This document shows, piece after piece, positions 27,343 through 29,290 of a DNA stretch of 64,000 bases. The DNA is from an uncultured Acidobacteriota bacterium. GTDB lineage: Bacteria; Acidobacteriota; JAQAZP01. The position numbers and the translations under genes were made by a program. Positions within the stretch are counted from its first letter, which is position 1. Each line of letters begins with the position of its first letter. The notes under the pieces were generated by a model. The model was not told the DNA's origin. It saw only the letters and a list, made by a program, of their open reading frames with translations, and ran no database searches. The stretch covers positions 3,330,442 through 3,394,441 of the forward strand of contig CAWIIB010000009.1 of the NCBI GenBank assembly GCA_963836075.1, in the 5' to 3' direction.

Positions 27343-28611
27343 TCAGTTCCAGAAGGGCAGCGGAATCACTTCCTCGACGGAGGCCTTGTAGTCCTCCTCG
27401 TCATCGTCGTCCCCGGTACGCTTCGATTTGTCCTTCGGTTCGAATTTCACGCGGCAGACATAGACCCCGATCTCCAGCCCGCTGGCAGTGGTTGTGGCAG
27501 CCTTGTCCGAGTATTTGTCGCTTTCCTTCTCCTCCTCGGTCAGGTTCTCCGGATCGGATCTCAGGGGCCAGAACTCCCAGGGATACTCGATCAGGTGCCG
27601 GCCCAAAGCTACCGTGGCCGAACCCGAGAATCCGACCACTGACATCTCCATTCTTCCTTCCCTGCGCACAATAATGACGATGCCGGCGTCCTCCTTCGCC
27701 GGTATCCAGGGGCAGAGATCCCACGGGCCCTCCTTGTCCTTCAGGAAGTAGGTGCCGGGGATCGACGGCGGGTGCTTTTTGTCGAACTGTTTTTTCTTCC
27801 TGGCCTCATCGCAGGTCTTCTGATATAGCTCCGGGTTCCAGTCTTCGAAGTTCGGCGGGAATACATCACCGCCGAAGCAGCTTCTCACCGTCCGGTCGAA
27901 ATCGCGGTAACAGAGATAGAAGGGCACCACCGGCGGCCCGGATGCCGGAGAGAAGGGCTGGCAACCGAAGAGGTTGGCCACCGTGCACTCCACCAGGTAG
28001 TTTGCGCGCTGGCTGCCCAGCAGGATCACGCTCTCCTCGGGATTCCGCGGCAGGATTTCCCGGTCAAAGGTTCTGGTCGCCCGGTCACGGTCTTTGTCGA
28101 ATTCGCAGCCTTCCTGGCAGGGCTGGTTCCAGGTGTAGTGGAACGGGATGAATCGCGTGTGCACTGACGGTCGATACTGGCCCATGTCACTGGTGGAGGA
28201 GAGGCGCCCGGTGAACATCGACGCCACCTCGGCATCGCGCCGGGACACCGAGCGGTGGGCCGGCACGTGGGGCAGGTCCCGGTGGGCCTGCTGGTATTCG
28301 CCCAGATAGATGGTGACCCACCTCGATTTTCCAAAGGCCAGCCACAGTTTGGACTCCCGGGAGCCGAAGAGGGCACCGGGTAGGATGGAGGGATCGAAGA
28401 GCCCCTTTTCGATGTCACTCTTCTTCTTGACCAGAATCCAGCGGCAGATGTTGCTGAGAACCTTGAGGGAAGGGTTGCTTATTTCGTTGGTCAGGAGGGC
28501 GCCGATGGTATGCCGGTGGACTTTGCATGCCTTGGCCAGTTCCTTCCTGAACCCGTGTGTATCGAGGCCGTAAAGCTTCAGGAATTGTTTCAGCCTCAGT
28601 TCGATCTGCAT
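27343..28611 (-). CDS. XRE-type HTH protein with a ~340-aa uncharacterised C-terminal region (acidic tail)
   Basis: N-terminal LKQFLKLYGLDTHGFRKELAKACKVHRHTIGALLTNEISNPSLKVLSNI fits an HTH_XRE pattern. No motif was recognised in the rest. Divergent from the Ubl operon. Confidence 0.6.
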   Translation of the reverse strand: MQIELRLKQFLKLYGLDTHGFRKELAKACKVHRHTIGALLTNEISNPSLKVLSNICRWILVKKKSDIEKGLFDPSILPGALFGSRESKLWLAFGKSRWVTIYLGEYQQAHRDLPHVPAHRSVSRRDAEVASMFTGRLSSTSDMGQYRPSVHTRFIPFHYTWNQPCQEGCEFDKDRDRATRTFDREILPRNPEESVILLGSQRANYLVECTVANLFGCQPFSPASGPPVVPFYLCYRDFDRTVRSCFGGDVFPPNFEDWNPELYQKTCDEARKKKQFDKKHPPSIPGTYFLKDKEGPWDLCPWIPAKEDAGIVIIVRREGRMEMSVVGFSGSATVALGRHLIEYPWEFWPLRSDPENLTEEEKESDKYSDKAATTTASGLEIGVYVCRVKFEPKDKSKRTGDDDDEEDYKASVEEVIPLPFWN

Positions 28612-28778
28612 CGTTCCGCCCTCCCCGAATAAATCACTGATGCCCGGTGATGACTACCGGATCTGCTGTCTGCTGGTGCCGGCCCATGGTTGAAATCGGG
28701 CCCGACTCCAATTTTTTTTGGTTTTTTTTACCTCCTGCGATTTGTCAGTCCCCAAGACTTTTAAAGAATGTTCATAAA

Positions 28779-28791
28779 TTGACACTGTCAA
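28779..28791. promoter_or_regulatory. Palindrome TTGACA-C-TGTCAA (candidate operator and/or -35 element)
   Basis: A perfect 6+6 inverted repeat with a 1-nt spacer in the divergent region. It reads TTGACA on both strands. Confidence 0.35.
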
Positions 28792-29161
28792 ATATCCCGA
28801 TTGTCCACAACAATCCCGGATATGTCGGCTGTGCGGAAGCATTTGGCTTCCCGATGGCGCATCCTCCGCTCCATCATAGTCCATTCGATTGTGAAATGTC
28901 CATAATAAATTACATTGTATTTGAATTATTATGGATAATTAAAACTGACATGAAACCATATATATGTATACTGAGATTCTACACGACTGTACAATAAAAA
29001 TCGGCAAAAGTGCAGAAAATTGCTGTTTTAATTCAAATATGAGGCTCTTGACGTAATTGATTTGAGGTATTAGGTTCAATATATCTCGTTTGTGTGTGTT
29101 GAATTTCTTTTTTAATCTTCTGTGGCTAATGATGAAAAGTGACAGCTTAAGACAACATATC

Positions 29162-29190
29162 TTACTTGTTCAGATTTTGCTCGATAGGAT
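29162..29190 (+). promoter_or_regulatory. Weak candidate sigma70 promoter for the Ubl operon
   Basis: TTACTT, a 17-nt spacer, then TAGGAT. An alternative is TTGATT (29058), 17 nt, TATATC. Neither is strong. Confidence 0.2.
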
Positions 29191-29290
29191 AGAAAAAGTG
29201 TACATATCGGAATTTCAGGTGTCAAGCGTCATGGAGTTTAACCGGAGGGCGGTGCGCAACCGGGCACCGGTCATTGGGAGGTGAATAGAG

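Follow-up and report, generated by a model that had tools for sequence, protein, structure and literature searches.

Prokaryotic operons that combine RING, E1, E2, ubiquitin (Ub) and JAB genes were reportedly described by Burroughs, Iyer and Aravind in 2011. To our knowledge, bacterial operons for a RING E3, an E1, an HPN-type E2, a ubiquitin-like protein (Ubl) and an Mpa-like ATPase were predicted more than ten years ago, are functionally untested, and are expressed at times that are not known. A RING/E1/E2/Ub/JAB system is on record from Caldiarchaeum subterraneum (PMC5654768), RING-containing bacterial Ubl operons are rare and uncharacterized (PMC10557695), and reports of regulators next to bacterial Ubl operons concern CapH/CapP and CapW/BrxR (PMC10557695, PMC11601603). 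We analyzed a 64,000-nucleotide (nt) stretch of contig CAWIIB010000009.1 from an uncultured Acidobacteriota bacterium, called the window throughout. Its operon shares with the prokaryotic RING/E1/E2/Ub/JAB operons a Prok-RING_1-like protein, a ThiF E1, an HPN-Cys E2, a Ubl-sized protein and a JAB peptidase. A 422-amino-acid (aa) helix-turn-helix (HTH) protein is encoded divergently from this operon across a long AT-rich spacer. The evidence moderately favors the view that this protein is the module's own one-component regulator, which would repress its own gene and gate the operon through a signal received by its orphan domain.

The amino terminus of the 422-aa protein has a five-helix, lambda-repressor-like fold. 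Its Pfam matches are all to Cro/C1 HTH models and all are sub-threshold; HTH_26 aligns with residues 23–57 at 19.2 bits against a Pfam cut-off of 22, and 33 of 37 family members match the same model at E ≤ 0.05 (best E = 4e-07). Within the predicted recognition helix, R33 is invariant and H32, H34 and T35 are kept in at least 90% of family members (alignment A1). The remaining ~350 residues (~75–422) consist of α/β subdomains. This C-terminal domain has zero Pfam model matches in any of the 37 relatives, no significant PDB sequence match, and nothing at E ≤ 0.001 in Foldseek searches of the PDB and BFVD. Neither sequence nor fold comparison detects a PBP-like or DeoRC/ISOCOT sensor domain in it, and scans of the 422-aa protein with PADLOC, NCBIfam and PHROGs assign no family. 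The conserved motifs GSQRxNYLVE, SCFGG and GFSGxxT are placed at strand-to-helix junctions and, judged from sequence, may form anion- or ligand-binding loops. The α/β domain is probably the sensing or oligomerizing part of the protein. An earlier note on this DNA had described a 422-aa XRE-type HTH protein, transcribed away from the operon and ending in an acidic run; the length, HTH type and strand are confirmed, and the acidic run (GDDDDEEDY) is instead found at residues 400–408, 14 residues before the C terminus, in a poorly conserved, low-confidence loop.

This architecture defines a family. A search of 5.8 billion proteins returned 39 matches, and at E ≤ 1e-10 the family comprises ~345 clusters (50% identity) among 1.84 billion representatives. 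Nearly all members are 340–420 aa long with full-length matches, and the combination of HTH and orphan domain is constant throughout.

The HTH gene is co-inherited with the operon as part of one accessory block. The ABC-F gene at 40056–41966 has 79–86% identical homologues on long contigs, and three of these, L109, L110 and L111, were taken for comparison. By blastn, L109 positions 7104–12661 correspond to window positions 44787–39303 and positions 12685–17453 to window positions 27336–22594, with 23 nt between the two alignments. L110 connects window position 39294 to 27324 across 13 nt, and L111 resumes at 27324. In all three contigs, the ADI-like gene or the ABC-F gene is directly followed by the CarboxypepD_reg and histidine kinase genes that flank the block in the window; an NtrC gene comes after the kinase gene in L109 and L111, and L110 ends inside the kinase gene. 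Because three related genomes join the flanks directly, the block is a single accessory unit. It is flanked by the ADI-like stop codon on one side and by a conserved hairpin on the other, and contains the HTH gene, the spacer, eleven plus-strand genes and nothing else. Insertion in the lineage of the window is the most parsimonious explanation, the alternative being repeated loss. The insertion site is itself variable: L110 holds a different 6.3-kb insert (12097–18393; Fur, cytochrome c peroxidase, metallophosphoesterase, SoxA-like and C25 peptidase genes) between the ABC-F and ADI-like genes, and L111 (11936–12330) lacks the ADI-like gene.

Horizontal acquisition had been suggested in the earlier note on the basis of base composition. 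The synteny with L109, L110 and L111 supports acquisition; composition gives no clear sign either way. The GC content of the block is host-like (0.625 versus 0.647 for the rest of the window), and the first four operon genes have a third-position GC content (GC3) of 0.70–0.77, which is 1–2.5 standard deviations low. The HTH gene is less GC-rich than its neighbors, as the note had observed (0.60 versus 0.653 ± 0.027 for 49 window genes), with an ordinary GC3 (0.80 versus 0.825 ± 0.05 for window genes); the deficit therefore stems from amino-acid composition and not from foreign codon usage. The reported lack of an integrase, tRNA or direct repeats also holds. A tRNA scan of the 64-kb window found none, no recombinase domain is present among the 8 of 12 block proteins assigned by Pfam (the other four have no Pfam match), and the block ends have no direct or inverted repeat of at least 11 nt and, apart from TCAG, no target duplication. 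A 10-nt inverted match (TCCTCGACGG / CCGTCGAGGA) between 27371–27380 at the 3′ end of the HTH gene and 39299–39308 at the 3′ end of the ADI-like gene is probably a chance match in GC-rich DNA.

Linkage to the operon extends beyond the window. Operon proteins were traced by iterated hidden Markov models over all fetched loci, and all seven close homologues with an upstream gene on their contig adjoin a RING-E1-E2-...-Ubl-...-AAA operon. The regulator gene is head-to-head with the RING gene in L001, L005, L064, L068 and L069, with spacers of 674–932 bp (674 bp in L069, the closest relative); L066 has an extra gene between regulator and operon, and in L004 the regulator gene lies between the E1 and E2 genes. 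Head-to-head spacers range from 411 to 1198 bp and measure 530–932 bp in most loci. This layout is kept across very divergent operon-linked members, including both E2 subtypes and a different E1 cluster in L020. In the reverse test, operons were retrieved independently via the E2 gene, and the HTH gene is present in 8 of the 14 loci whose upstream DNA was long enough. The proposal of a locus-specific regulator is thus supported by the single block, the recurrent head-to-head layout and this count, and has to be narrowed in one respect, as the family is also found beside conjugation and housekeeping genes.

These other contexts make up much of the family. Among 58 species-representative loci, the operon lies within 10 kb of the HTH gene in seven and a different divergent E1 cluster is present in two. 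A Desulfobulbales clade adjoins HTH_17-TrfA-TraL/TraE/TraK/TrbI conjugation genes. In L009 (3265–9540), and likewise in L007, L008, L010–L013, L047 and L063, the regulator is head-to-head with HTH_17, a TrfA-type replication initiator and TraL/TraE/TraK/TrbI; the Desulfobulbales TrfA/Tra genes belong to a conjugative element or plasmid. A large Phycisphaerae/Sedimentisphaerales clade is found among extracytoplasmic function (ECF)-sigma, pseudopilin or housekeeping genes. In a neighbor-joining tree (no bootstrap), the operon-linked members are paraphyletic around the window protein and the conjugation-linked clade is nested among them.

A DNA motif accompanies the family in all three contexts. 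Dyad enumeration in 50 non-redundant upstream regions found TGGC-N10-GCCA with A/T flanks far above shuffles, and the consensus upstream of the family's own genes is AAATG(G/T)C-N10-G(C/A)CATTT (20–26 bp). The Phycisphaerae loci have three ATGGC-N10-GCCAT copies at fixed positions of −114, −69 and −38 from the ATG, and variants of the form ATGTC...GCCAA occur at −166 to −188 in the conjugation-linked clade. The location of the dyad upstream of the family's own genes points to autoregulation. The triple arrangement occurs in L018, L021–L036, L039, L042 and L044 (Phycisphaerae and Sedimentisphaerales) and resembles a textbook multi-operator autoregulatory region. Many operon-linked spacers also have significant dyad matches, and in L001 and L068 the best dyad is closer to the operon than to the regulator gene.

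A palindromic position weight matrix (PWM) was refined with sequences from all three contexts but none from the window. The best candidate operator, at 28893–28918 in the spacer (Table 1), is the top-scoring position in the entire 64 kb, and the runner-up scores 10.8. Its TGTC..TACA variant is also found in the independent locus L078, which was outside the training set and has a significant match (P < 0.002); L101 (P = 0.002) and L076, likewise outside training, also score, and L093 and L080 do not. The exact pattern TGKC-N10-GMCA is absent from the window spacer, where the variant was found only by the PWM. A PWM built from the Phycisphaerae loci gave no significant match in the window, and the match arose after retraining on the three contexts.

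Three promoter-like sites, all of them matches to the consensus, are located in the spacer; their predicted starts are ~28866 and ~29190 on the minus strand and ~28979 on the plus strand. The candidate dyad sits between two that are back-to-back, an arrangement that, as read from the sequence, corresponds to the classic divergent-promoter layout. Downstream of the HTH gene, the hairpin at 27301–27330 now probably serves as its terminator.

These elements combine into a proposed mechanism. The regulator gene is outermost in the 12-kb block and the RING-E1-E2-Ubl-Mpa-like ATPase-JAB-E1 operon is transcribed in the opposite direction. Family members would bind the dyad upstream of their own genes and so autoregulate. 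The 422-aa protein is predicted to bind 28893–28918, which overlaps the −35 hexamer of its own promoter-like site, and most likely represses its own gene. The same site is also ~70 bp upstream of the predicted start at the operon promoter-like site, and transcription of the operon would be gated until the C-terminal domain receives its signal. The regulator reading follows from co-inheritance of gene and operon as a unit, the deeply kept head-to-head layout, and the placement of the dyad between divergent promoter-like sites.

Table 1. Positions of the features of the regulator locus and its operon in the window
Feature	Position	Strand	Remarks
Hairpin CCCCGGTTCGACGAAATTGTCGAACCGGGG, just outside the block	27301–27330		Kept in the empty sites of relatives; 13 nt beyond the stop codon of the HTH gene
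Accessory block (HTH gene, spacer and 11-gene operon)	27337–39302		11,966 bp; missing from the site in three related genomes
Gene for the 422-aa one-component regulator (candidate)	27343–28611	−	XRE-type HTH at residues ~1–70, orphan α/β domain at ~75–422
HTH-coding part of the gene	28402–28611	−	Predicted recognition helix with nearly invariant H32-R33-H34-T35
Divergent control region (spacer)	28612–29290		679 bp, 41% GC; core 28–30% GC
T8GGT8 (A8CCA8 on the HTH strand)	28712–28729		Two phased A-tracts, 101–118 nt upstream of the HTH ATG
TTGACA-C-TGTCAA palindrome, TTGACACTGTCAA	28779–28791		Present; flagged in the earlier note
Promoter-like TGGACA-18-TATGAT toward the HTH gene	28873–28902	−	−35 hexamer overlaps the left half of the candidate operator
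Best candidate operator, GAAATGTC-CATAATAAAT-TACATTGT	28893–28918		PWM score 16.8, P = 0.007 versus local-composition shuffles
Promoter-like CTGACA-16-TATACT toward the operon	28945–28972	+	27 nt to the right of the candidate operator; RING ATG 318 nt downstream
Promoter-like TTGACA-17-TACACT toward the HTH gene	29197–29225	−	585 nt upstream of the HTH ATG
RING-type E3 candidate, operon gene 1	29291–29932	+	Prok-RING_1 E = 1.4e-05, sub-threshold in Pfam
E1-like ThiF-family enzyme	29944–31191	+	ThiF E = 5.4e-24; PADLOC E1-E2 models also match
E2-like protein	31268–31945	+	HPN motif, then invariant Cys; H134, N136 and C147 conserved (alignment A3); no Pfam match
271-aa conserved operon protein, no assigned function	31950–32765	+	
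100-aa small protein at the Ubl position	32779–33081	+	Ends ...THLG; no Pfam match; Ubl label from operon position and size
396-aa conserved operon protein, no assigned function	33172–34362	+	
Mpa/ARC-like AAA ATPase	34340–36127	+	AAA E = 4.8e-14, Prot_ATP_ID_OB_C; TIGR03689 pup_AAA E = 8.4e-25, below its cut-off
Distal part of the operon	36105–39175	+	134-aa and 316-aa proteins, Prok-JAB peptidase, second ThiF-like protein
Prok-JAB peptidase	37440–38348	+	
Second, shorter ThiF-like protein	38345–39175	+	

The spacer itself is unusual in composition. Its length, its AT-rich core, the A8-CC-A8 tracts and the TTGACA-C-TGTCAA palindrome are all present as had been described before; its right edge is set by the start of the next plus-strand gene at 29291, and the core has exactly 72 G+C in the 240 nt at 28921–29160. 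When the 64 kb is scanned in 240-nt segments at 10-nt steps, all 42 segments below 45% GC fall in 28500–29500, with a minimum of 0.28, and the remaining intergenic regions have GC contents of 0.44–0.66. The AT-rich core is a true compositional outlier within the 64-kb window. Long GC-depleted spacers are present in 12 of 13 head-to-head loci, in genomes of 44–74% GC, and the window has the largest drop. Because such spacers recur across genomes of differing GC, the AT-rich stretch belongs to the locus type; it is a control region intrinsic to it and does not represent an insertion scar or residual donor composition. One A-tract plus the AGTCG after it aligns with the L069 spacer, and the A-tracts may, from their sequence, be a bend or UP-like element.

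Several observations weigh against the view of the 422-aa protein as the regulator of this operon. About 45 of the 58 species-representative family members are away from a RING/E1/E2/Ubl operon, and 6 of the 14 E2-retrieved operons lack the HTH gene. The dyad in the window has one core mismatch (TACA for GACA), and PWM refinement took the best match per sequence, which favors AT-rich matches. Consensus promoter matches are expected often in AT-rich DNA, and the plus-strand site at 28945–28972 is not kept in L069. The C-terminal domain has no informative structural neighbor, which makes its sensor role an assumption, and DNA binding at 28893–28918, the direction of regulation and all three promoters are likewise predictions. 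Two of the six operons without the HTH gene have a divergent DeoRC- or SorC-like gene instead (L085 790–1887, L088 6534–7682), perhaps as a non-homologous substitute for the regulator; hhalign comparison of the family with the divergent neighbors of four of the six, the DeoRC/SorC-like genes included, found no relationship. The missing genes would also be expected if the protein were an autoregulated regulator with targets elsewhere or at its own promoter only, placed beside the operon by the shared mobility of accessory cargo. The three unrelated family contexts and the Phycisphaerae dyads that adjoin the regulator's own start codon agree with such an arrangement. We nevertheless consider it unlikely, as the shared head-to-head spacer is kept in very divergent operon-linked members, the best dyads in L001 and L068 are nearer the operon, and the window block consists of the regulator gene and the operon only.

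The remaining alternatives assign the spacer a different role. The earlier note had proposed the palindrome at 28779–28791 as the operator, and this is not supported for the family as a whole. Dinucleotide shuffles of the spacer contain on average 0.83 perfect 6+6 palindromes with a gap of 0–3 nt, and half of the shuffles have at least one, so its presence is no more than the chance expectation; its outward half-sites with a 1-nt gap differ from the inward family dyad with its 10-nt gap, and the best dyad match is elsewhere. It is doubtful that the palindrome works as the operator, or as one of a pair, in the subclade of the window itself. Such a role would fit with CTGACACTGTCAA in the close relative L070, which is 162–173 nt upstream of the ATG versus 167–179 nt in the window although the surrounding DNA has diverged. 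The pentamer TGACA/TGTCA is also enriched in the spacer (28743, 28780, 28786, 28946, 29140 and 29220; 6 versus 1.6 expected, P ~0.004, for a motif picked after viewing the data). Against it, L069, the closest relative, retains one half only. TTGACA is also the −35 consensus, several of the pentamer copies are parts of −35-like hexamers, and the enrichment may stem from promoters. The palindrome may be a subclade-specific element or merely a pair of −35-like hexamers. A small RNA or peptide encoded in the spacer, or an antisense transcript interfering with the operon promoter, could be driven from the 29225–29197 site, which fires into the AT-rich core 515–585 nt upstream of the HTH ATG and faces the plus-strand promoter-like site ~210 bp away. 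Both hexamers of this site are common to the window and L069 while the 17–18 nt between them differ, but conservation is limited to L069. Rfam has no match in 26900–29600 at E ≤ 1, tblastx and blastn among 11 spacers found no shared small open reading frame (ORF) or block except the ribosome-binding region, and the predicted folds of three putative leaders are no more stable than those of shuffled sequences (z = −0.6, −0.4 and +0.5), which leaves this explanation highly improbable. We give as little credence to the idea that the AT-rich core is foreign DNA bound by a xenogeneic silencer of the H-NS, MvaT, Lsr2 or Rok type, or by another nucleoid protein, that holds the operon off, with the HTH protein in a secondary role. 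Seen against related genomes, the block is inserted DNA, its core is the most AT-rich DNA in the 64 kb, and phased A-tracts are present; the AT-rich stretch is, however, internal to the block and away from the junctions, the GC content elsewhere in the block is host-like and the GC3 of the HTH gene normal, and GC-depleted spacers recur at this locus type in genomes of 44–67% GC. The regulator reading can also be extended. As a speculation, the orphan domain could be a new kind of signal receiver and the family a dedicated switch for mobile accessory modules, both the Ubl/proteasomal-ATPase system and the Desulfobulbales conjugative genes, with the AT-rich spacer and its facing promoters acting as a bistable phage-like switch that would set the timing of expression of the ubiquitin-like machinery.

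The operon genes are summarized in Table 1. The RING candidate is 38% identical to the divergent neighbor of the HTH gene in L069. The region N-terminal to its RING-like zinc finger (e.g. VNGKIAPPVILLKAGDELLF) looks FHA-like by eye, and Pfam has no FHA match there at E ≤ 0.1. An FHA-like N terminus would recall the eukaryotic FHA-RING ligases. The distal module of 134-aa, 316-aa, Prok-JAB and ThiF-like proteins is also found 3′ of the ATPase gene in L001 and L068. In the short-E2 operon subtype (L004 1–2597, L064 1–2871, L066 1–2403), the Mpa-like ATPase gene is followed by two PafA/Dop-like Pup-ligase genes that bracket a 64–68-aa ORF; the position of these genes 3′ of the ATPase places RING/E1/E2/Ubl and pupylation-like systems side by side in Planctomycetota. 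The E1 gene of L001 (7451–8667), and likewise of L002 and L003, is split into ORFs of 75 aa and 313–325 aa that are 11 nt apart. The split, present in three independent assemblies of the same sequence, may be a real interruption or a recoding site.

The main interest of the locus is the experimental handle that it offers on an untested eukaryote-like ubiquitin system. Induction experiments become feasible with a co-transferred regulator, a concrete candidate operator and the empty-site comparison. The empty sites establish the ubiquitin-like module as accessory. A further outcome is a regulator family with a few hundred clusters and an unmodeled 350-aa domain, which is found on conjugative elements as well.

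The known regulators of bacterial Ubl operons are built differently. CapH/CapP identity was ruled out by the lack of a CapP-type metallopeptidase partner: Pfam and PADLOC, run on the 422-aa protein and on the first seven operon proteins (RING through ATPase), show none next to the HTH gene, and the sole peptidase in the block is the distal Prok-JAB. CapW/BrxR identity was ruled out because the 422-aa protein does not have the winged HTH (wHTH)-WYL-WCX architecture; no WYL or related domain is found in it or its 37 relatives by Pfam, nor in the 422-aa protein by PADLOC. In contrast to both systems, the 422-aa protein is one polypeptide that includes a 350-aa orphan domain, and no PADLOC regulator model matches it. 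The operon, with its RING, HPN-type E2 and Mpa-like ATPase, is also of another type than the CBASS, Bil and Bub operons. The HTH is most similar to those of the mobile-element repressors Stl and ImmR. Unlike SaPI Stl, ICEBs1 ImmR and phage cI/C2, the protein has a C-terminal domain unrelated to the Stl sensor domains, the S24 peptidase or the ImmA partnership, and, compared with mobile-element master repressors, the block has no anti-repressor or protease gene and the genes under its proposed control are not for replication or transfer. LacI/PBP or DeoR/SorC-type identity was rejected, as the α/β domain has no significant PBP-fold or DeoRC/ISOCOT match. The protein resembles LysR/LacI-type divergent regulators in working as a divergently encoded one-component regulator, and differs from them in that its HTH is of the XRE type and not the LysR wHTH or LacI type, and in its unusually long, AT-rich spacer. 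We found no description of the regulator family in the accessible literature. A regulator paired with its own operon is a known arrangement; here, the regulator family is undescribed and its putative sensor domain is new.

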